Shown one piece after another: positions 40,781 to 63,816 of a stretch of 64,000 nt of DNA. This stretch comes from Thraustochytrium aureum. Lineage: Eukaryota. The DNA is taken from the NCBI GenBank assembly GCA_012862495.1, contig BLSG01000391.1, forward strand, positions 355,760-419,759, written 5' to 3'. The position numbers and the translations under genes were made by a program. The notes under the pieces are model-generated. The model did no database searches. It had not been told where the DNA came from and worked only from the letters and a program-made list of their open reading frames with translations. Each line of letters opens with the position of its first letter. Positions within the stretch are counted from its first letter, which is position 1.

Positions 40781-42195
40781 CTAATTCACGACCAGAGAAA
40801 GGCGCCTTTGCGAAGAGAGGTTGATCCCCGCGCTCATGGTCACTGCCGAGGGCGGGCCCGGGGTACCAGAGTCTTTCGTGGCATGCCCCTGAAGCGACGA
40901 GAGGGAAGACCTCAGCTCTTCAACAGACAGCCGTTCGGCGCTTCCGCGAGAAGCAGCAGGCGTGGCTACCGGTGCCTGAGAAGGTGGAGTGGGGCCGTCG
41001 GCCTTGCTGAGCCGACGAGAAGAGCGGCGAGATTGACCGAAACGCATCGACCCGCCGCCCATTCGGCGAACGAGATGCTCAAACTCTTCGGCGGTCGCGT
41101 TGCGCAAGAGGACGAGGGCGTTGTTGGCGACCAAAAGATCCGCGGCGAAAAAGATGGTTGATGCGACAATGACGAGCGCCTGAACTAGCCGTAGAACGCC
41201 TGCGTCAGCCTGGTTCGTGTCGCCCCGGTCCACAATGACAAACACCCACCGCCGGCCAGGGAGGTGGGTGACTCGAACCTCACCCAACACAATACCGTAA
41301 GCCCCGGTGGTGGCTTTGGAGTAGGTCGCAGACTCGAATGGAACGAGTCGAGAGTCCTCGCCAGGCGCGTCTACAGCGCTTGCTATGCCGGCCAAAAAGA
41401 CCGGTTCCTCGTCAGGCTCGTCGCCGTCGAAAACGTCAGGACCGTCGAAAAGGAGCATGGCTAGGCCCGTCATTGCGTTAATGGGGTCCACGTCCATATT
41501 CTCCGTCGCGTTTGCTACGGTTCGCAGTCCGTTCATTGCGCTGTCGGCGAGCGACGAGGTCCGAAACATTACCGCAACGAGATCGCCGGGGTTCGCCGGA
41601 ACAGGGACGAGGCAAATGACCCCGGGCGTCTCGACTCCGGTCTGCGGCAAGATTAGTAGACCTGTGCAGGCGGCCTTGCCTTCTAGCGCGACGCGGCGCA
41701 CTGTCGCGTTCACCTCGGGCAGCGAAGCCAAGTTGAACATGATTAGCTGGGCATTCTCGCGAGCTGGCTCCACGTGCTTGACGACGTAGTACTCGCGGCG
41801 CTGGATCGCTTCCCAAAAGAGCCCCGCGACGTCGAGTTCCCGGATCACATACGACGTTCCGGGCGTCCCAAGCTCGCCGCGAAAATACTCTGTCGCGTTG
41901 GCCTCGGCTGCCGCCCGATCGGCTGCTTGCACGTGTGAGACCCACGCGAATCCGAGCACGTCGGGCCTGCCACGGCTGCCACCGCTGCTGCCGCTAAGCC
42001 ACGGCCTGACCATACCTGACCATGCCTGCCGTGCGCCTGGCCACGGTGTGCTCACTGCTGCAAGCGCTTCAGCGAAGCCGAGGTGTGGCAGAGCCAGCTG
42101 CTGCGTGGAAGCCACAGTTGACAGGGCGAACTCTTGCAAGACCGTCCGCCGCCACGCGGTGGTGACGGCTTGAAACGCTTGGATGAACAAGAGCG
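40781..42195 (-). CDS. CHASE-domain membrane protein; 5' part in gap
   Basis: GFAWVSHV…RAAAEA…YVIREL…RREYYVVKHVEP…ENAQLIMFNLAS…GLLILPQ…GVICLVPV; GRRWVFVI followed by a TM helix. Confidence 0.75.
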
Positions 42196-43194
42196 NNNNN
42201 NNNNNNNNNNNNNNNNNNNNNNNNNNNNNNNNNNNNNNNNNNNNNNNNNNNNNNNNNNNNNNNNNNNNNNNNNNNNNNNNNNNNNNNNNNNNNNNNNNNN
42301 NNNNNNNNNNNNNNNNNNNNNNNNNNNNNNNNNNNNNNNNNNNNNNNNNNNNNNNNNNNNNNNNNNNNNNNNNNNNNNNNNNNNNNNNNNNNNNNNNNNN
42401 NNNNNNNNNNNNNNNNNNNNNNNNNNNNNNNNNNNNNNNNNNNNNNNNNNNNNNNNNNNNNNNNNNNNNNNNNNNNNNNNNNNNNNNNNNNNNNNNNNNN
42501 NNNNNNNNNNNNNNNNNNNNNNNNNNNNNNNNNNNNNNNNNNNNNNNNNNNNNNNNNNNNNNNNNNNNNNNCGTCCGCGTCAAACTGGCTGCCACAGCCG
42601 GCCCGCTCGGCTCGCGCGCTAGAGGATTGGTGCCTGCAATTCTACATGCTGCTATTGCCTGCTGCCGCTCGACTCACTCAATAGATTGAACTATCGGTTG
42701 GCCGCCCTCGCGCTCTCGGTGCGTTGGAATGTCAACCGCTCTACAGAATGCTTTTTTTTTCCGGGTGCCGAAGCATCGCCAGAGGGCAGCTGGAGCCCGT
42801 CAGCCGTCTCGGGGCGTTTGCACAGTGTCGCCCCCTACTGTGGCTGCTGTGCATCGATGTTGCGCTGCGTTTTGCACTGGACTTTCTCACTGTCGCAACG
42901 GCTCTGTTGAACAGACTCGCGCGCGGCTACCGCTCAGGAGACGAAGCGCTTTCAACACGCCGGAGGGTTGATGGACGTGGATTGAAAGCGCGCCGGCGCG
43001 AGGCGTTCGTCCCCGTTGATGGTTTCCGAGCGGTCTGCGGTCCGTGCGCAGCTTGAGTTCAACTTGTTCCTGGCGAGAATTGCACCAAAATTTGAAGCCT
43101 GAAGTGGTTGGCGTCTGGGCGTGAATTCTGCAAAAGCAGCGAACACAGCGATCAACGCCATTGCGCACGGCAAGCCAATCCGCACCAACCACGA

Positions 43195-43830
43195 GCACGG
43201 TCATCTCCCGCGAGCCCCAACGCCGATCATCCAGCGGCAACGAGCAAAACAAACCAACGCAAAACCACGCGAACACCAGGATCAACGACAAAACAAAACG
43301 CGCAAGAGCCCAATCGAACGCCACGACCAACGCCAAGCCACCCACCGAGGCGCCACAGCCCGGCGCGCCCGGAGACACGACCACCACTTGGCCCACGACC
43401 ATCACTTGCGAGTAGGCAGCCCCATCCATCGAAAGCGAACACCAGGATCAACGACAAAACAAAGCACGCAAGAGCCCAATCAAACGCCACGACCAACGCG
43501 CCAAGCGACCCACCCAGACGCGCCAACCCGGCGCGCCACGCCCACGACCATCACTTGGCCCACAACCACCACTTGCGAGTAGGCAGCCCCATCCATCGAA
43601 AGCGAACACCAGGATCAACGACAAAACAAAGCACGCAAGAGCCCAATCGAACGCCACAACCAACGCCAAGCGACCCACCCAGACGCGCCAACCCGGCGCG
43701 CCACGCCCACGACCACCACTTGGCCCACGACCACCACTTGGCCCACGACCACCACCTGCAAGTACTTCGCCCTATCCACAGCAAGCGAACAGCAGGATCA
43801 ACGGCCAAAACCCAGCAGCGCGTCCAGGAC
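43195..43830. repeat. Tandem minisatellite of about 167 bp (about 3.5 copies) with nested 18-bp cccacgaccaccacttgg subrepeats
   Basis: gaacaccaggatcaacgacaaaacaaa at about 43271, 43437 and 43604, with a diverged copy at about 43787. Confidence 0.9.
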
Positions 43831-45936: not shown

Positions 45937-47088
45937 CTACAGCGCCGCAGCGAGAAAGCCAGCCGCAGCAGCGGCCACGAGGGGAGCAAGCACTGCGCCG
46001 CCAGCGGCGGCCGACGTGGGCTCGCCCGGTGCTTTCGGGTCGATCGAGAGCTCGAGCGTGGTGTCCGGGCTCGCAAGGCCGCACACTGCGCGGCCGATGA
46101 TCGGGGAGGTCTTGTCCTCGGTGGCGTGCACAACCATGGTCCTCCCAACGATGGGGGCGAGGCTCGCCGAAGCAGCAATGGTGGCCACCTCGCGCCACTC
46201 GGCCATGCCTTCGCCGTTGGCCTTGACGGCGCCCATGGCAGCGCCAATGGCGCTCGAGCTGTCAAACTCTGGGCCGAGCGCGTCGGTGCCCACGATGTCC
46301 CCGAAGGTGCTAAAGTGCACGGCGTGCTCGCCGTTCGCCGTGAGGCCCTTGATTTGGAGCTTGCTCGTCGTCGCTTTGCCGTCACCGCCAAACCCGGTCG
46401 TGAAGAGCGCGCGCCCGCTGACAGTAAAGTCGCCCTCCTTGATGAAGCTGCAGTGCACGCGCGTCGGCGGCGACATGGCGGCCGCCTTCGACTCTTGAGC
46501 GCCGCTAGCAGCGCCGATCATGCCAAAGGCGTACACGCCGCCAGCGTCTCCGAACGGGGGCAGGCCGTTGTCGACGCGCTCGTGGATCAGGACGGACCTG
46601 CCAATGATCGACTTGGTGTTGTGCGAGAGCGACATTTTGCCCTGGCCATACACGAACGTCTGGCTCACCGTGCAGTCAGGCTGCGCGGTAATGTTTCCCA
46701 TGTCGCCGCTCTGCCGCCGCTGGCTCGGGGGGAACCCGTGCACAGTGTCGTCGTCGCATGACTGGTTGGCTTCGTCGTCGGGCACGCAGTGAGCGACAAA
46801 GTGGAGGCCTATCCGTGCAAGGGTGTCGCTCTCCGAGTCGTCGCCGAACTGGTGCACGTGAAACCCGTGCTCCCCTGGTGTGATCCCGGTCAGCTCAAGC
46901 TGCACGGTGACATCACCTTCCGGCTCAGCTTGGGTCCAGGTCACCGTGCCGCCGATGGGGTCCGCGCACGACTTCTTGTCCGCGCTGCTTGACGGCCTGA
47001 TCAGCGACGTCGCCACAAACTGCGCATCAGCGCTTCCCGCGGCTGCCGCGAGCCACGCGGCGGCGAGCACCACCGACGGGGCCTTCAT
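45937..47088 (-). CDS. Secreted, probably GPI-anchored tandem Cu/Zn-SOD-fold protein
   Basis: Signal MKAPSVVLAAAWLAAAAGSADA; domain 1 GEHGFHVHQFGD, GLHF, HGFP, GDMGNI, IIGRSVLIHERVD; domain 2 GEHAVHFSTFGD…IVGRTMVVHATED; hydrophobic C-terminus. Confidence 0.85.
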   Translation of the reverse strand: MKAPSVVLAAAWLAAAAGSADAQFVATSLIRPSSSADKKSCADPIGGTVTWTQAEPEGDVTVQLELTGITPGEHGFHVHQFGDDSESDTLARIGLHFVAHCVPDDEANQSCDDDTVHGFPPSQRRQSGDMGNITAQPDCTVSQTFVYGQGKMSLSHNTKSIIGRSVLIHERVDNGLPPFGDAGGVYAFGMIGAASGAQESKAAAMSPPTRVHCSFIKEGDFTVSGRALFTTGFGGDGKATTSKLQIKGLTANGEHAVHFSTFGDIVGTDALGPEFDSSSAIGAAMGAVKANGEGMAEWREVATIAASASLAPIVGRTMVVHATEDKTSPIIGRAVCGLASPDTTLELSIDPKAPGEPTSAAAGGAVLAPLVAAAAAGFLAAAL

Positions 47089-54960: not shown

Positions 54961-56175
54961 CCCGTTGCGCGCGTGCGTGCGTGCAAGCGCGCGTGCAAGA
55001 GCGCGGCGGGCGTGGCGGCAGGCGGGTTGGTGTACTGCGCGCGCCTCGTGGTCATTGTTCTTATTTCTGGCGTGCTAATGATGGTGGCATTTGAAGTTGT
55101 GGGGCTGGTGCGAGCTCATGGCTCTGTGCGCGCGCCTGCGGCCGTACGTGCGTGCGTGCGTGCGTGCATATGTGTGCGTGCGGTATACATACGTTGGGCG
55201 AAGTATGGGCGGCGCAATTGATGATGTGACGCCCGTGGTGCAGCATATGGTGAAATGGGCATGTGCCAGAACCCGGGCTCCACGCGAAGCACTGCGATCT
55301 TGTGCGGTCCTGAACCGGGAGCAAGCCGATGGCGGCCAGCGAGCGAGGGATGCAGGCGATCGATCTGTTTGTCTTCCTCGCGCAACCTGGCTGACCAGGC
55401 ACCGCTCAATCAAGACAGGCATCGAGCACCAAGGCCACGAGAATGCAAGCGATCGATCCGCCGCGCAGCTCGGCTCGCCCGAACCTCGTTGTCAGCACTC
55501 TAGCTAGTACCTGTGCGCAACCCGGGCCTGGGAGGCAGTGTCCAGATTCAACCTTGCTGCTGCGCAAGAAAATCAAGCCACAAGTAAGCCAAGGCCAACA
55601 GCCACAAAACATCCCGAAAAGGAGCATCGTTGCGCTCACCTGTTGCCAGCGCTGACCGGCTTGCGCGCAGCCCGTGCTCGGTAAGTAGGTAANNNNNNNN
55701 NNNNNNNNNNNNNNNNNNNNNNNNNNNNNNNNNNNNNNNNNNNNNNNNNNNNNNNNNNNNNNNNNNNNNNNNNNNNNNNNNNNNNNNNNNNNNNNNNNNN
55801 NNNNNNNNNNNNNNNNNNNNNNNNNNNNNNNNNNNNNNNNNNNNNNNNNNNNNNNNNNNNNNNNNNNNNNNNNNNNNNNNNNNNNNNNNNNNNNNNNNNN
55901 NNNNNNNNNNNNNNNNNNNTCGAGGCGAACTACAGAGGATGTACTCGAGTACACTCGGAGGACGTACTCGCTCCACTACACGAACGACTCAATCAACGGA
56001 GCACGCTGCAGACCCCGAACGGACGAACGCGCGTGGACAGGGCGAGCGAGGACAGCGCGCAGGCTGGCTTGCTGACTTGCTCACGGCGCGGCTTCGAGCT
56101 CGCGGGGGCAGTGCTGGCTGGCGAGGAGCGCAGGGATTTTGGTTGCGATTCTGGCTCTCCACGCAGGTCGGCGGA

Positions 56176-59100
56176 ATGGAGGTCGAAGACGAGCTCACGG
56201 TGGACTCGCGGGAAGACGCGTTGGCCGCGCTGGCGCAGGGCGAGAGTCGGTGAGTTGGCGGCGGCTGCTCGGGCGCGGTGATGGCAGGGATGTGCTGTCG
56301 GGCGCGGGCCTCGCGGCTTTGGGGAGGTCGCTGACTGCGGAGCAGGCTGGTGGTGAGGTCGCTGAACAATGAGGCGCTTATCGAGCTGTTCAAGGCGCTC
56401 GAGAGAAACTCGGGGCTGTGCTCGCTCGAGTAAGTCTTGCAGGCCTCGTGGTGCGGTGCAAGTGCGTCTTGAAGAGCCTCGTTCGGTCACTAACAGGGGC
56501 GAACCGCAGGCTCGAAAGTCCCAGGTTTCAAGACGCTGGGGCTGGCGCGCTGGCAAAGGCGCTCGCGAAGAACACGGCGCTGACGCGGCTGCAGTAAGTG
56601 CTTTGGTTCTGCCCACGCGCGCTGCCTGCTGGCGCCCGGCCAACGTGGGCTTGCGATCGGCGGATTTCTGACGTGCGAGATCGCACCAACGCAAAGCATC
56701 GAGCAAGCCAAGATCAGCGAGGCAGGCGCTGCAGCGCTGGCCAAGGGTCTCGCGAAGAACTCGACGCTGAGTACGCTCAAGTAAGTTGCCATGGTGTTGA
56801 ACAGTCCACTCTAGTAGGTTTTCGCGTTGGCAAAGCGCGGGTGAGTGTCTCTGACAGGTGTGGCAACAGCCTTTGGGGGGGCACGATCGGTGACGCAGGC
56901 GGTGTCGCGCTGGCCGAGTCGCTCAAGAGCAACTCGACGCTAATTGCGCTCATGTAAGTTGTTATTGGGGTCGATCGCGCAATCGCGTCGCGCGGTTCCT
57001 CACGTAGAGAGCTAGCTGGTTAACGAGCTGCAAGCGACAACGAAATCAGGTATGGCGGGAGCAAAAAGATCAGCAGCGAGGGAGCCAGGGCACTGGCTAA
57101 GATGCTCGAGACCAACTCGACCCTCGCTTCGGTAAAGTAAGTCGTCGCGGGCTCCAGTGATGCGGCGCCTTGTGAGTTGGCGCCGACAAAACCCCATGCA
57201 GGCGGCTGATAAGATTGCACAATGATCAAGCTTCGAGAACGCCAGTATCGGCAACGATGGGGCCATCGCTTTGGCCAGTGCGCTAAAGTCAAACTCGACG
57301 TTGACATTTCTGAGGTACGTCGCTCAAACCGTTGGAGCAGCACCTGGTGCTGTCGGGCATTTTGGCCGTGCCCGTAGCCACCGTCTAGCTGGCCTGCACA
57401 CTGACGCGGACCTGGCGTGAACAGTCTTGAGCACAACGGAATCGGTGATTCTGGCGCTGGCGCGCTGGCCAATGCTCTTGAGGTGAACTCGGCTCTGGTC
57501 TCGCTAAAGTAAGTCGTTGCAGACNNNNNNNNNNNNNNNNNNNNNNNNNNNNNNNNNNNNNNNNNNNNNNNNNNNNNNNNNNNNNNNNNNNNNNNNNNNN
57601 NNNNNNNNNNNNNNNGCTTGCGATCCGCTCTCTCCAAGCGCTCTACTCTAGCTTGAGCGATCCAGAGAGCTTGAGCGATCCAGAGAGCTTGAGCGATCCA
57701 GAGAGCTTGAGCTCGAGTTGGGCTTGATTCTGAGCGAGGTAGCTGCCAGCCAAGCTCTCCTCACCTCGAATGCTGCTAACAAATGAAACAATCAACCATG
57801 AAACAGCCTGGATAGCAACCGAATCAGCGGAGAGGCCGCCGGTGCACTGGCAAAGGCACTCAGAGCAAACTCGACGCTGACCGCGCTCGAGTAAGTCGTC
57901 CCAGAGCGCCGCATGCGCTGTGGTCTGCGCAGCGCGAGCAAGGCAATCGCATTCGGCAAAAGCAAATGTTCGCTAACCATCAAACGGCGACAGGCTTGGA
58001 TACAACAGCATCAGCGACCTAGGTGCTGTCGAGCTGGCAGCCGCCCTCGAGTCAAACTCGACGCTGACCAGTCTTGGGTACGTCAGCCTTCGCAGCGGGT
58101 CGCTCCAGCCTCTTGCGCTCTTGCTAACAATTCAGCGCGACACAGTCTTAGCAAGAACGGTATCGGCGGTCCTGGTGGAGTCGCGCTGGCAGAGGCTCTC
58201 AAAGCCAACTCGACGCTGACCAATCTGGAGTAAGTCGGCCGATGCGTGGGTCTGGCTGCGGCGGCCAAGTGGTGCGCGCTCGCTGACAGCGCGTTGTACG
58301 TCGTCAACAGTCTTGCGAAGAACACTATCGGAGAGACTGAAGCTAGAGCGCTGGCCAGAGCGCTCGCGGCCAACCCGAGACCGGCTCCGGTCAAGTAAGT
58401 CGTTGCAGCGCTGCATGGGTCGCCCGCGCGTCGCTAACAAGCTCCAGCAACGACAGGGATGCGCCGGAGGTGAGCCGTGGCGCCTCTCCTTCGCCCGAGC
58501 ACGAGCCAATGTCGCCGCCGAGTTCGACGCTCAGTTCGATGTCTTGGGCGCAAGCCCGCCGTGCGACGGACGAAAAGGCAGAGCTGGAGCGGCACTTTCG
58601 CGAGGCGATTCAGGATGGCGACGTGCAAGAGTGGGGCCGCGCCAAGCTGATGGTGGTGGGACAAGGCGCAGCTGGCAAGACGCAGACGGTGCGGTCGCTG
58701 CTGGGGCTGCCGTTCCAGGAGGAGCACAACTCGACCGAGGTGGCGGAGGTGACACAGGCGCAGGCGCGGAACTGGAAGCCGCAAGATGCAGGCACGAGCA
58801 ATTTCGACTTGCTGGCGCAGCGCGCGGCGGCAACTCGCGCGGCCAACAAGGGCAAACCAGCCGAAATTAAGCGGCAGAGCCTTTTTCACTTTTTAAGGCG
58901 CCCCTGGACGTCCGCCAAGGGCGGTCGGAAGAAGAACAAGGGCCAAGAGCAACCGCGGCGCGAGCTGCTCGAGGAGAAGGAGATCTTGCGCCGCTTCGAC
59001 TTTGAAGAGGTCAAACGCTTGGCGACCAAGGCGGGGCAGGGCACAGACGTGAGCTTTACTATTTGGGACTTTGCCGGGCAGGAGGTCTTCTACGCGCTAC

Positions 59101-60950
59101 ATCACATTTTCCTGAGCGAGAACGGGCTCTACATCGTCGTATTTAGCATGTCGGACTTGCTTCACCCTCGAAAGGAAGCGGAGGCCCTGCGGTTCCTGCT
59201 GTTTTGGCTCAACTCCATCGAGCTGCACGCCCCGTCGGCGCCAATCATCCTAGTCGGCACGAGGGCCGACGAAGTGAGGACGCGGGCTCAGCGCGAGCAG
59301 GTAAACGCGTGCCTGCGGGACAATCTGGGGGTCGAAGGTCGGTCCGTGATTCGCAACACCGAAAGCAAATTGTACTTCTTCCCGGTCGACAACACCTCAG
59401 CGTCCGAGGACCGCGCCTCGTCGCTACGCAAGGTCGTGCAAGAGACGGCCGCTGCGCAAGACTACATCCGGCGCGAGGTGCCGCTGGCGTGGCTCAAGGT
59501 GCTCGACGACATGCTGTTGTCCGAGCAGCCCCACTTTGCTTTTGATGCTGTCGCCGAGTTGAGTGCAGAGTACGGCATGTCTCTCGTTGACACTGGAAAG
59601 ATGCTTTGCGACCTGGACGAGCTCGGCGTCGTGGTGTACCAGCGCGCGACGGCCGCGTTGCAAGACATGGTGATTGTCAAGCCGCAGTGGCTGCTCGACA
59701 AGCTCTCCGCGGTGATCGCGGACGAGCTGCACGTCAAAGACTTGTTTTTCGACAACAAATATGCAAGAGTGGACAAGCAGCTGGCCGAGCTGCGGCGCAG
59801 CGGCGTCGCGACGCACGCGCTGCTCGAGTTCCTTTGGGGCAGCGAACAGGTCGACTACCTGATCGACTTTATGAAGGGCGCGTGGCTGCTGAGCACGCTC
59901 GAGCCCGGCAGGTACATGGTAACGAGTGTCGTGACGCAGGGGGGTCGGGACGCGCTCGTAGACATTGCGCACCTCCAAGGCGGCCTGCAGTGCGAGGTAG
60001 AGTTTTCATGGCTTCCGAACGGCGTTTTCCAGCGGCTGGTCGCGCAGTGCACGACACCTGCTCTGAGTGCAAGTGAGGCTGGCAACACGATTTGCAAAGT
60101 TGGCAAGACCAAGGCTATCCTCGCGTTCAGGGACACGACCTTCTCGGTGCAGGAGCGCGGCAACTCGCTTGTCATAAATGTCGACCCAAAGGCGGCTGAC
60201 GGGGCCTTGGTGGTGAAAATGCTGGTCTCGATGATCCGCGAGCAGAATTCCGTGCTTTTCCACAGGTTGGACTTTAAGCTCCTGGCCGTCAACAGAGACG
60301 GGGATGCGGTGGAGTACAGCGAGCTCAAGGCCGCCCATGGGCAACGCATGCCGTATATACTGAACCACCGGAGAGACAGACGCGTCCGTGTCAACACATT
60401 CGCCAAGTTTTTCGACGAGCAGTATGGCAGGATCGACAGCGACGCGGAGGGCGCAGCAGCCAAGATTCAGACCCAGCTGGCGCCGCTCGCGCGTGGCCTC
60501 AAGTACCACGTCTTTCTGAGCCACATCCAGAGCACCGGCGGGGACATCGCCGGGCTCCTCCAGCGCGACCTGACGAATCGCGGACTCAGGGTCTGGTTCG
60601 ACAAGGCTTACGAGGGCGAATTGAACGAGGCTGCCATGCTGGAGGGCGTGCGAAGCAGCAAATGCTTCCTGCTGGTTCTCTCCAAGGGCGTGTTCAGCAG
60701 CACGTTTGTGCTGGCCGAGCTCAACCAGGCTATATCGGCGGGCAAGCGCGTGATCATGGTGCACGAGCCCGAGCAGCACCGCGAGAGCTTCGCCCCGTTC
60801 TCCGACTACATCAACGCGGCCCCGCCGGAGCTCGAGTTGTTCAAGAGGGTTCAGTCGCTGGAGTTTGAGCGGTACGCCTACAAACTCAAGGCGTTCCTCG
60901 AGGTGCTCGTCACGCGCATCAACGCGGAGTGGCCTCCGCGTCCAAGCTAG
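56176..60950 (+). CDS. LRR-ROC-COR-TIR (ROCO family) protein; exons 56176-56249, 56346-56429, 56510-56593, 56697-56780, 56870-56953, 57050-57136, 57231-57314, 57425-57508, [gap], 57807-57890, 57994-58077, 58146-58229, 58311-58394, 58457-60950
   Basis: RI-like LRRs (…GAxALAxALxxNSTLTxL); ROC G1 GQGAAGKT, G3 IWDFAGQ, G4 VGTRAD; COR VPLAWL…LGVVVY…VKPQWL, LPNGVFQRL; TIR KYHVFLSH…VWFD…RSSKCFLLVLSKG…VLAEL; all introns GT-AG and phase 2. Confidence 0.92.
57651..57712. repeat. 18-bp tandem repeat (about 3.4 copies) inside a ROCO LRR intron
   Basis: gcttgagcgatccagaga x3 plus gcttgagc. Confidence 0.9.
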
Positions 60951-61332: not shown

Positions 61333-63343
61333 ATGGCGGCCAGGGTGCGCAAAGGCGAGCGGCAGGGGGTGACGGCCGGCCAGCTCCTGGTGTTCATCAT
61401 CGGGTGGGTTGGGCTGATCTTTGCGGTGAACGCGTACCGGCGGGCCGCGGGACTGATTCCTCACAGCGAGGAGCCGACGCTGGCGCCGAGCGCGGGGGCT
61501 GACGCGGCAAGGCAAGCTGCGATCGCTGGCGCGCCCGGCAGCGGGGGGCTTGGCGGGCAGGGCGCTGCCGAGTCGCCGTTGGAAAACTGGAACAAGCTGT
61601 CCTTGACCGAACTGCAGACAAGGATGCAGTACTGGCACGGCGAGGCGCTCTCCAACACCGGGCTCAGCCGCCTGCCGAGCCTCGCTGGGGACCGGTATGT
61701 GATCTTCGAAACAGACTGCGGCGGCTGGAACAACATCCGGATGACGTTTGAGATCGTCGTCATCTACGCTTGGCTCACGCGGCGCGTCCTCGTGCTGCCC
61801 CCGCCCGGAGGCATGTACCTTTTGGACTTTGGGCCCATCGTGCGTGGGAAGAGCAGCGACCGCGGCGCAACGCGCTACAGCGATTTTTTTGACATCGAAG
61901 ACCTCCGCGCCTCCATGCCGGTGATTTCAACCACCGAGTTCGTGCGCCGCGAAGCTGAGCGCCTCAACCTCCCGGAGGGTTTGCGTACAGCCAAGCTCGA
62001 GTCGGACACGGGCCGCAGGGAGTGGAAGAAGTGGATCAACTCTGATCCTGGGCAGAATGATCCCCGTGTAAACCTGCCCTGGTCACCGCTCAGCAAGGTT
62101 CTCTTCTTCCCCAGCATTGCAGCTGTGGAGGCGGCGTTCCCCGAGGGCGTCCCGCGCGACTTTGTGCACCACCGCGAGCGCGTCGAGCTGACGCCGCAAG
62201 TTGTGTCAGCCCCAGTGCTCAGCTTTCCAAGCTGCAAGGACAATGAAAACTACCGGGTAAGTTCTTTCGCCGGTGATGGCAGTGCAGGGTGCCCGCTCGT
62301 GAGGGGCGGACGCGCGATGTGGCGGGCTGCGCTCGGCTGAGCGGGGACCGCCCCTGGCCGTCTGCTGCCCACCATTTCTCGCAGACCCTTTTCGACAGCA
62401 GGCTGACACAAAGGTATTCNNNNNNNNNNNNNNNNNNNNNNNNNNNNNNNNNNNNNNNNNNNNNNNNNNNNNNNNNNNNNNNNNNNNNNNNNNNNNNNNN
62501 NNNNNNNNNNNNNNNNNNNNNNNNNNNNNNNNNNNNNNNNNNNNNNNNNNNNNNNNNNNNNNNNNNNNNNNNNNNNNNNNNNNNNNNNNNNNNNNNNNNN
62601 NNNNNNNNNNNNNNNNNNNNNNNNNNNNNNNNNNNNNNNNNNNNNNNNNNNNNNNNNNNNNNNNNNNNNNNNNNNNNNNCGCGCCGCCTGACGCGACTTT
62701 TGCGTCCGCCGCGCAGCTCGGGCCGTTCAAGTATGTCTCGCTTCACGTGCGGCGCAACGACCTGCAGTACAAGGAGGTTTTCATTCCCGCCGAAAAGTCC
62801 CTCGAAAATGTCAGGGCGCTGCTGCGGCCGGGCGAGACGATCTACATTGCCACAGACGAATCCGATCCGCACACGTTCTTCCGCGCGTTCAAGGACGCCG
62901 GTTATCGTGTAGTGTTTTGGCAGGACATCCTTGACGCGGGCGTCTTTGACGGCGTTACGTTGAACAAGAAGCACGAGGGCGTCATCGAGCAGGTAAGTGA
63001 GCGAGCGGAGGACCGAGCGCGCCACAGCATGCGGCTTGCTGACTAGCCAGCGAGCGGCGCGCAGATCGTCTGCGCCTTCGGCCGCTTCTTCGCCGGCACC
63101 GTCGAGTCGACCTTTTCTTCCTACATCTTCCGGTTGCGTGGCTACTACGGCACGCAGGAGGGGGACCGCCGCACCCCAGAGGACTTTGACACGATGGTGC
63201 GGTTTCACAACGTCCTTTACAAGGGCAAGCGGCGCTCGGACCTGGCTGCCACGCTGCGCCTCAAGCCAAACAAAGGCACGATCTACAAGTCGGAAAACCC
63301 CGCCATCTGGACTGACGCGGTCGCCCCGCACACCACGTGGTGA
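61333..63343 (+). CDS. GDP-fucose protein O-fucosyltransferase-like (POFUT2/O-FucT) type II membrane protein; exons 61333-62256, [gap], 62717-62992, 63065-63343
   Basis: TM; YVIFETDCGGWNNIRM…RRVLVLPP; SLHVRRNDLQY; IYIATDE; IEQ|IVCAFGRFFAGTVESTFSSYIFRLRGY. Confidence 0.9.
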
Positions 63344-63816
63344 ATGCCAGCGCGACCTCGCACCTATGGGCACCGAGCACCTACATACTTACCCAACAGG
63401 CAAGCGCACAATTTTCTTCCCACAAGAGCAAAGCACGCCGCGGGTGGCCGCGGTTCGACGCGCGCCAGATCGTGGCCGCCGTGCTGCCGCAACACGAGCC
63501 CCTCTTGGATCAGCACGAGCGCCTCCGGCACACGCGCTGTCGACCGCGCTCTGGCAGTGGCGACCAGCCAGCAGCGCGGCGATCTTGCTTTTGAGGCCGT
63601 GAAACCCGACCGACTTGTCCATGGAGTTGTGGATCACCTCCAGGTCTTTGTTGCTGTGGCGCTCGGCCTTGCGCAAGTCCACGTCCACGAGGCTTTGCAC
63701 GATCGATCCTTCACTTGAACGAACGCGAGACGGTGCCGGGAGTTCAGCTTGGCCGCGCCGTAGATCTGCCGCTCATCTGATGATGAAGATGATCGATCGG
63801 GTCACGACTCGCGGAT

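Follow-up and report, generated by a model that had tools for sequence, protein, structure and literature searches.

The 64,000-nucleotide stretch of the Thraustochytrium aureum contig BLSG01000391.1 analyzed here (positions 355,760 to 419,759 of the forward strand; in the following, the window) contains a spliced and expressed gene, in which an array of leucine-rich repeats (LRRs), each encoded by a small exon of its own, precedes ROC, COR and TIR domains. On balance, we favor a reading in which the product is a cytosolic NLR-like sensor, and in which the repeat array stems from old serial duplication of one exon and, in the data examined, is read in fixed order. The domain order, splicing in order at 10 of the 12 introns, a glutamate in the TIR domain's catalytic position and membership in a multigene family with varied N-terminal sensors are observed directly; a ligand-sensing function, an active TIR domain and a part in immunity are inferred. 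A repertoire generated in each cell by splicing or rearrangement is unnecessary to explain the data.

The gene comprises 13 exons at positions 56176-60950 (forward strand; Table 1), whose joined frame encodes 1164 amino acids and contains no internal stop. As a first-pass annotation made from the sequence had described, eleven internal exons (ten of 84 nt, one of 87 nt) carry one LRR apiece, all 12 introns are of the GT-AG type and in phase 2, each intron splits the codon of an exposed residue, namely the fifth position of the LxxLxL strand, and the ROC-COR-TIR part lies on a single exon. The array's repeats make up a single family with 11 copies; the number of canonical LRRs is nevertheless about nine, since the repeats on exons 2 and 12 are degenerate caps, and the earlier count of eleven LRRs thus holds for the exons only. 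From the first to the twelfth, the introns measure 96, 80, 103, 89, 96, 94, 110, 298 (with an assembly gap inside), 103, 68, 81 and 62 nt. At the 5' end, the frame is open through 55939-56175 ahead of the ATG at 56176, which leaves an alternative in-frame start at ATG 55939, and a GTAAGT donor-like site is found at 55682, adjoining a further assembly gap (55693-55919) upstream of exon 1.

Splicing was followed in sequencing runs, six of which are listed for the organism; X1, X3 and X4 (one study) and X2 (DNA, from a second study) were compared with the window. No run is recorded as RNA, and X1, X3 and X4 were taken as such because their contigs carry GT-AG joints. These contigs join the exons at the predicted sites of introns 3-12 (10 of the 12 introns, at 96% likeness), with the 87-nt exon included. 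No contig joins across introns 1 and 2, where the missing RNA cover over exons 1-2 is evidence neither way. Every joint at this likeness (10 of 10, depth 2.5-4.5) connects neighboring exons, and none skips an exon. The exon order is collinear in the X2 DNA and in the RNA, both of which differ from the window by scattered single-nucleotide polymorphisms (SNPs). The assembly gap at 57525-57615, whose closure the first-pass annotation had recommended, is spanned by X2 record 9, with zero letters between its edges and with the adjacent 18-mer repeat 35 bases shorter, so that intron 8 measures about 172 nt in X2. A hidden exon within the gap is excluded both by this record and by the RNA joint 57508>57807, which runs directly across intron 8. 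The 18-nt tandem repeat itself is about two units shorter in X2, either as a length polymorphism or as an assembly artefact at the gap edge.

The functional assignment of exon 13 combines profile matches, sequence motifs and a structure model of the exon 13 part (predicted local distance difference test score, pLDDT, of 79). In the ROC domain, the P-loop lies at 58659-58682, and the G3 and G4 motifs are present. ROC is followed directly by COR, by which, according to profiles and model, the protein is classed as a ROCO protein, although the COR-A match is slightly below the Pfam cut-off of 35.3 bits. The best fold matches of the model are the Roco protein of Chlorobium tepidum and LRRK1/2 (6hlu, E 9e-21; 3dpu, template modeling, TM, score 0.71 by target), and exon 13 gives no Pfam match to a STAND ATPase (NACHT or NB-ARC). 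For the TIR domain, the best matches in both sequence and fold are SARM1/TIR-1-type TIRs, the TIR part of the model matching SARM1 with a TM score of about 0.8 by target. The glutamate at the SARM1 catalytic position in helix alphaC (codon 60717-60719, E1088 of the full protein) is kept in 17 of 18 aligned family proteins. GTP binding and a nucleotide-dependent dimer cycle are predicted from the ROC motifs, and NAD+ cleavage or the production of cyclic ADP-ribose (cADPR) is predicted for the TIR domain. Roco classes and their dimer cycle have been reviewed (PMC6337361), Roc-COR is described as present in prokaryotic conflict systems (PMC7159879), and some eukaryotic TIRs are reported to make cADPR, the architectures of the active ones including Roc, COR and LRR according to a figure legend (bioRxiv 10.64898/2026.04.20.719644).

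Table 1. Exons, gap-containing intron and predicted domains of the T. aureum LRR-ROC-COR-TIR gene (window positions).
Feature	Positions	Strand	Basis or remark
Exon 1, N-terminal cap, ATG 56176	56176..56249	+	joined frame; RNA contigs over 56040-56210 unspliced
Exon 2, 84 nt, degenerate capping LRR	56346..56429	+	joined frame
Exon 3, 84-nt RI-type LRR	56510..56593	+	joined frame; RNA joint 56593>56697
Exon 4, 84-nt LRR	56697..56780	+	joined frame, RNA joints
Exon 5, 84-nt LRR	56870..56953	+	joined frame, RNA joints
Exon 6, 87-nt LRR, one additional codon	57050..57136	+	acceptor 57050 seen in X1 and X3
Exon 7, 84-nt LRR	57231..57314	+	joined frame, RNA joints
Exon 8, 84-nt LRR, weak LRR_6 match	57425..57508	+	joined frame, Pfam, RNA joints
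Intron 8, assembly gap and 18-nt tandem repeat (57650-57712)	57509..57806	+	about 172 nt in X2
Exon 9, 84-nt LRR	57807..57890	+	joined frame, RNA joints
Exon 10, 84-nt LRR	57994..58077	+	joined frame, Pfam, RNA joints
Exon 11, 84-nt LRR	58146..58229	+	joined frame, Pfam, RNA joints
Exon 12, 84 nt, final repeat merging into linker	58311..58394	+	joined frame, RNA joints
Exon 13, 2494 nt: linker, ROC GTPase, COR, TIR, stop	58457..60950	+	joined frame, Pfam, structure model
ROC GTPase, bounds approximate	58638..59396	+	Pfam Roc 74 bits, cut-off 27
COR (COR-A and predicted C-terminal half), bounds approximate	59481..60416	+	COR-A 32.5 bits, fold
TIR, SARM1-like	60504..60926	+	TIR_2 40.7 bits, cut-off 28; SARM1 alignment, fold

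In the course of events which we propose, a ligand or a disturbed host protein would bind the concave face of the LRRs and thereby shift the nucleotide and dimer cycle of ROC-COR; the TIR domains would then cluster and cleave NAD+, resulting in its depletion or in a cADPR-type signal, and the cell would respond by defence or death. Diversity would arise over evolutionary time and across paralogues, by gene duplication and the gain or loss of repeat exons, by fast point change on the concave face, the intron-split codon included, and by the swapping of LRRs for WD40 or other sensors.

A search with the ROC-COR-TIR part returned 73 matches, 33 of which are proteins of Hondaea fermentalgiana, with further matches in Mucochytrium and Aplanochytrium and a top identity of 44%; a search of representative sequences gave 293 clusters at E<=1e-30, and one confined to longer proteins (2093-5000 amino acids) found solely distant animal and amoebozoan Rocos. 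Among the 33 Hondaea proteins, several of which are partial, TIR_2 is found in 27, LRR similarity in 11 and WD40 in 7. The N-termini of the family thus comprise LRRs, WD40 or other sequences, and relatives differ in their LRR count. In a quick tree of 52 rows (P0001-P0052; not an exhaustive tree search, with support from the Shimodaira-Hasegawa approximate likelihood-ratio test, SH-aLRT, only), the T. aureum protein groups with P0005 of Mucochytrium and with LRR-bearing Hondaea members (SH-aLRT 97), and all 7 WD40 members form one Hondaea-only clade (SH-aLRT 100), which fits at least one replacement of the sensor and points to a young WD40-ROC-COR-TIR clade within Hondaea. By these sequence relationships, the gene belongs to a labyrinthulomycete family, and the top named match of the neighboring RUS1-family gene is likewise from Hondaea fermentalgiana; the protist origin suspected earlier is borne out. 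The pairs P0010/P0025 and P0034/P0209, the two members of each lying on contigs of equal length, suggest tandem clusters in Hondaea. Within the family, P0026 has an additional N-terminal TIR region and P0209 contains two ROC-COR-TIR units in tandem, and the database names of its members (Rab, F-box/WD, LRRK; P0008-P0050, P0209) mask the relationship.

Paralogues also exist in T. aureum, and the gene is therefore not single-copy: each of the three RNA runs contains ROC paralogues of approximately 87-90% likeness, and at two places (loose ends 56939 and 57453) LRR exons of paralogues share this phase-2 intron, which is retained in DNA and spliced out in RNA. Hondaea models give indirect indications of the same site. 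Where a database LRR has an abrupt start, Arg or Ser immediately precedes it in 6 of 7 cases, two of these six being ordinary N-caps, compared with 4 of 49 normal LRRs; if the residue is the product of read-through at a phase-2 acceptor, the Hondaea genes share the intron site. A metagenome scan with the family alignment yielded 2 loci from 111 pattern matches, neither of them with sequence upstream of ROC, a viral scan yielded 0 of 42, and the DNA patterns of the exon ends gave no match in viral and prokaryote contigs; a locus with the exon array thus came from none of these collections. No Roco neighbor is found in the 64-kb window, where the gene is surrounded by housekeeping genes.

The first-pass annotation had gone further and taken the recognition surface to be open to variation by alternative splicing or exon recombination. 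The repeat exons are, however, only 45-70% alike among themselves, with no near-identical pair in the array; intron flanks are 26-27% alike (25% when shuffled), of 66 intron pairs, just 3 show a likeness at p<=0.01, and no conversion tract was found in the array (p=0.47). Spare, orphan or inverted LRR exons were detected on neither strand of the 64 kb by a protein hidden Markov model and nhmmer, and eleven of the twelve introns are too short to contain one. By a hand count, X1 differs from the window at no fewer than 2 of 807 positions in the LRR exons and at no fewer than 10 of 2224 positions in exon 13 (p=0.74), and allelic variation is not raised in the LRR exons. In a codon model of exons 3-11 (nine exons, a small sample, on a star tree; six concave positions, with concave and convex sites assigned from the standard consensus of ribonuclease-inhibitor (RI)-type LRRs), omega is 0.13-0.14 for the canonical scaffold, 0.28-0.30 for the rest of the repeat and 0.86-0.99 for the concave positions (95% range about 0.5-1.8), the latter exceeding the rest of the repeat (twice the log-likelihood difference, 17-19). 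The concave face therefore evolves about neutrally, at about three times the rate seen elsewhere in the repeat; purifying selection, which would have spoken against a diversifiable surface, is not seen there, and neither is an omega above 1.

Several observations weigh against the reading of a conserved array in an active immune sensor. An RNA depth of 2.5-4.5, together with the loss of rare forms from contigs, means that minor skip isoforms could escape, although the joints establish the full-length order. Exons 1-12 contain three coding SNPs, each of which alters an amino acid (Q21L, G65V, K154E), although they are too few for testing and none lies on the concave strand. Since omega on the concave face is not above 1, relaxed constraint would explain it no less well than diversifying selection. 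Exon pairs use an identical codon for the same residue in 392 of 653 comparisons (60%), compared with 36-39% under three nulls (p about 0.0005), an excess which fits common descent, splicing signals or homogenisation and may reflect ongoing homogenisation rather than age alone. Furthermore, an unspliced 251-nt X1 contig at depth 2.5 matches 57840-58019 at 97% (6 differences in 180 nt), covering intron 9 together with half of exon 9 and the first part of exon 10. Its donor reads GC instead of GT, and 70 bases at its 5' end are foreign, with an 11-nt and possibly fortuitous match to sequence in the upstream assembly gap; the contig may represent a partial copy of recent date, a paralogue in decay or a chimera of the assembly. 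Finally, only 4 of 29 TIRs from unicellular eukaryotes that bear the glutamate were active in E. coli (bioRxiv 10.64898/2026.04.20.719644), which makes the conserved glutamate a poor predictor of activity.

Some of these points would fit active exon recombination as proposed for Ectocarpus, in which a genome-wide pool of 84-nt exons would be exchanged among paralogues by unequal crossing-over or gene conversion, and the present gene would be a quiet member. The intron site common to the paralogues (indirectly also to the Hondaea models), the surplus of silent-site identity at scaffold codons, the intron and foreign 5' end of the 97% contig and the varying LRR count of the relatives agree with such a process, as does the depth of short LRR words, which far exceeds that of the gene (842 against 4.5 in X1, 61 against 4.7 in X2). 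Such summed depths were rejected as copy numbers, however, and the 97% copy is a single contig that could be chimeric or decayed. The array itself lacks near-identical exons, clear intron homology and conversion tracts, the window holds no orphan or inverted exon and presents the gene alone among housekeeping genes, and the exon order is collinear in X2 DNA and X1 RNA; we regard recombination of this kind as doubtful. Nothing in the data shows active variation in this gene: at low depth, joints connect neighbors throughout, the order is collinear and the hallmarks known from Ectocarpus are absent from the window. The notion of a diversifiable receptor survives in part: it retains the shared intron site, the concave omega near 1 and the 97% partial copy, and it loses ground through the age of the exons and the lack of orphan exons, conversion and raised allelic variation. 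In a large family, the binding face thus has freedom to change, and shuffling or skipping in this gene remains a candidate only.

A second alternative assigns the protein to functions outside immunity, such as cytoskeleton, trafficking or stress signaling in the manner of Dictyostelium Rocos or LRRK2, with the TIR domain as a scaffold and the intron pattern as a relic of neutral duplication. The characterized Dictyostelium Rocos serve chemotaxis and the cytoskeleton, as described in PMC11378527, and both the concave omega, which does not exceed 1, and the inactivity of most glutamate-bearing protist TIRs tested would be expected of such a protein. Nevertheless, the lineage-specific expansion, the swapping of sensors, the glutamate in 17 of 18 relatives and the faster concave face are the usual marks of conflict receptors, and a non-immune role appears improbable to us.

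The one-repeat exons also raise the question of alternative splicing. Non-adjacent joints do occur at 85% likeness, but they lie mid-exon, have sides of 20-36 nt among the joints listed and are absent at 96%; they were rejected as exon skips and are best explained by paralogues. Constitutive intron definition typically acts on introns such as these, with lengths of 62-110 nt and apparent consensus donors and branch points, which counts against a splicing repertoire. Skipping of LRR exons into up to 2048 in-frame subsets, comparable to the delta-exon-5 form of NLRP3 and to Ectocarpus variants, would have precedents (PMC6642158, PMC11378527) and would always remain in frame and stop-free, but with no skip among the ten joints found at 96% in the three RNA runs, all from one study, it is a most improbable account. 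The stop-free junctions, which had been read as favoring it, carry little weight. The 3' dinucleotides of the exons were listed correctly as never TA or TG, and none of the 144 combinations of donor and acceptor makes a stop. No exon begins with A, however, and hence only a TA end, with Tyr as the residue, could matter; Tyr is found at the junction position in 3 of 41 homologous repeats, and the probability of no TA in 12 junctions is 0.40. This is the chance expectation, and the junctions were rejected as a sign of design. One paralogous transcript (X1, X4) does have Tyr at the junction position, as read by hand and assuming the same intron site.

The preferred reading of a fixed, anciently duplicated array can be placed among several known systems, and the comparison with the one-LRR exons of Ectocarpus and the 84-nt LRR exons of NOD/NLRC genes, drawn earlier, was right. 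Brown-algal LRR-ROCO genes have 72-nt phase-2 LRR exons (24 amino acids), spare inverted exons in introns and splice variants (PMC3341825, PMC11378527). They share with the present gene a stramenopile Roco, one LRR per phase-2 exon, an expanded family, fast-changing concave sites and a proposed immune role. The T. aureum gene differs in its 84/87-nt exons, its 28-residue RI-type repeats, its C-terminal TIR domain and its unicellular host; its introns are mostly too short for the spare and inverted exons found in the algae, and the near-identical, recent exon copies of Ectocarpus have no counterpart in the window. The brown-algal proteins are described as lacking a TIR domain, and no Ectocarpus LRR protein is reported to have one; a TPR-ROCO-TIR protein is noted in the red alga Chondrus (PMC11378527).

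Human NOD/NLRC genes likewise encode one 28-residue LRR per exon, with NLRP3 skipping one exon (Hoss et al., 2019, PMC6642158). In both cases, an RI-type repeat occupies a frame-preserving exon with its border fixed in the beta-strand, but the human proteins combine a NACHT/STAND ATPase with C-terminal LRRs, whereas here N-terminal LRRs precede ROC-COR and a TIR effector. In Tetrahymena, arrays of 90-bp LRR exons with phase-2 introns are reported (Xiong et al., 2019, PMC6564038), again in a unicellular eukaryote with equal exons and a common junction codon; there, repeats have 30 amino acids, the genes number in the thousands and have undergone recent clonal expansion, and a retrotransposon is linked to them. 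The LRR-ROC-COR core is shared with C. tepidum Roco and LRRK1/2, from which the protein differs in having no kinase and a TIR domain after COR, and the catalytic-position glutamate is shared with SARM1/TIR-1-type TIRs, with ROC-COR rather than SAM as the presumed oligomerising module.

The remainder of the window is intron-poor, not intronless as had first appeared. In the 57 kb outside the array, 9 candidate introns were counted, compared with 6.5 +/- 2.2 by chance, in a census which undercounts (it recovers 9 of the 12 array introns); in the O-fucosyltransferase-like gene downstream (61333-63344, forward strand), introns of the GTAAGT type lie near 62257 and 62993. Other features include a kinesin motor protein whose C-terminal domain is MIP-T3 CH-like (1409-3808, reverse strand), a CHASE-domain membrane protein (40781-42673, reverse strand), whose sensor domain type is best known from plants, bacteria and Dictyostelium, and a protein in which two stretches resemble Cu/Zn superoxide dismutase and the C-terminus is hydrophobic (45937-47088, reverse strand). 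An intergenic 167-nt tandem repeat (43269-43740; 2.8 copies, 91% matches) shows a strong strand skew.

The design of one LRR per exon is thus already known from brown algae, Tetrahymena and human NOD/NLRC genes; what is new is the combination of 84-nt RI-type exons with Roco and TIR, and the lineage in which it occurs. More surprising than the exon design is the expansion of a Roco-TIR family in a unicellular stramenopile, of which no published account, in this group or in labyrinthulomycetes, was found in the open-access literature (supplements aside). ROCO expansion has been linked to multicellularity, with no more than four ROCOs reported for unicellular SAR species in the survey concerned (Teng et al., 2024, PMC11378527), whereas Hondaea alone has at least 33 ROC-COR proteins in the database, some of them partial, and most have a TIR domain that keeps the catalytic glutamate. 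We tentatively consider a thraustochytrid NLR-like repertoire possible, in which dozens of receptors with a Roco switch and a TIR NADase share a recombined pool of 84-nt LRR exons; if such a pool were real, it would represent an independent, unicellular origin of exon-shuffled immune receptors, convergent on the exon unit of human NOD genes.

Exon shuffling in brown-algal ROCO genes was proposed in 2012 (Zambounis et al., PMC3341825). The immune hypothesis for these proteins has stayed open since, partly because they have no obvious effector. Thraustochytrids are culturable and in part transformable. With a TIR domain as a direct read-out (NAD+ loss, cADPR, death), both the immune role of Roco proteins and the use of one-repeat exons would become directly testable in these organisms.

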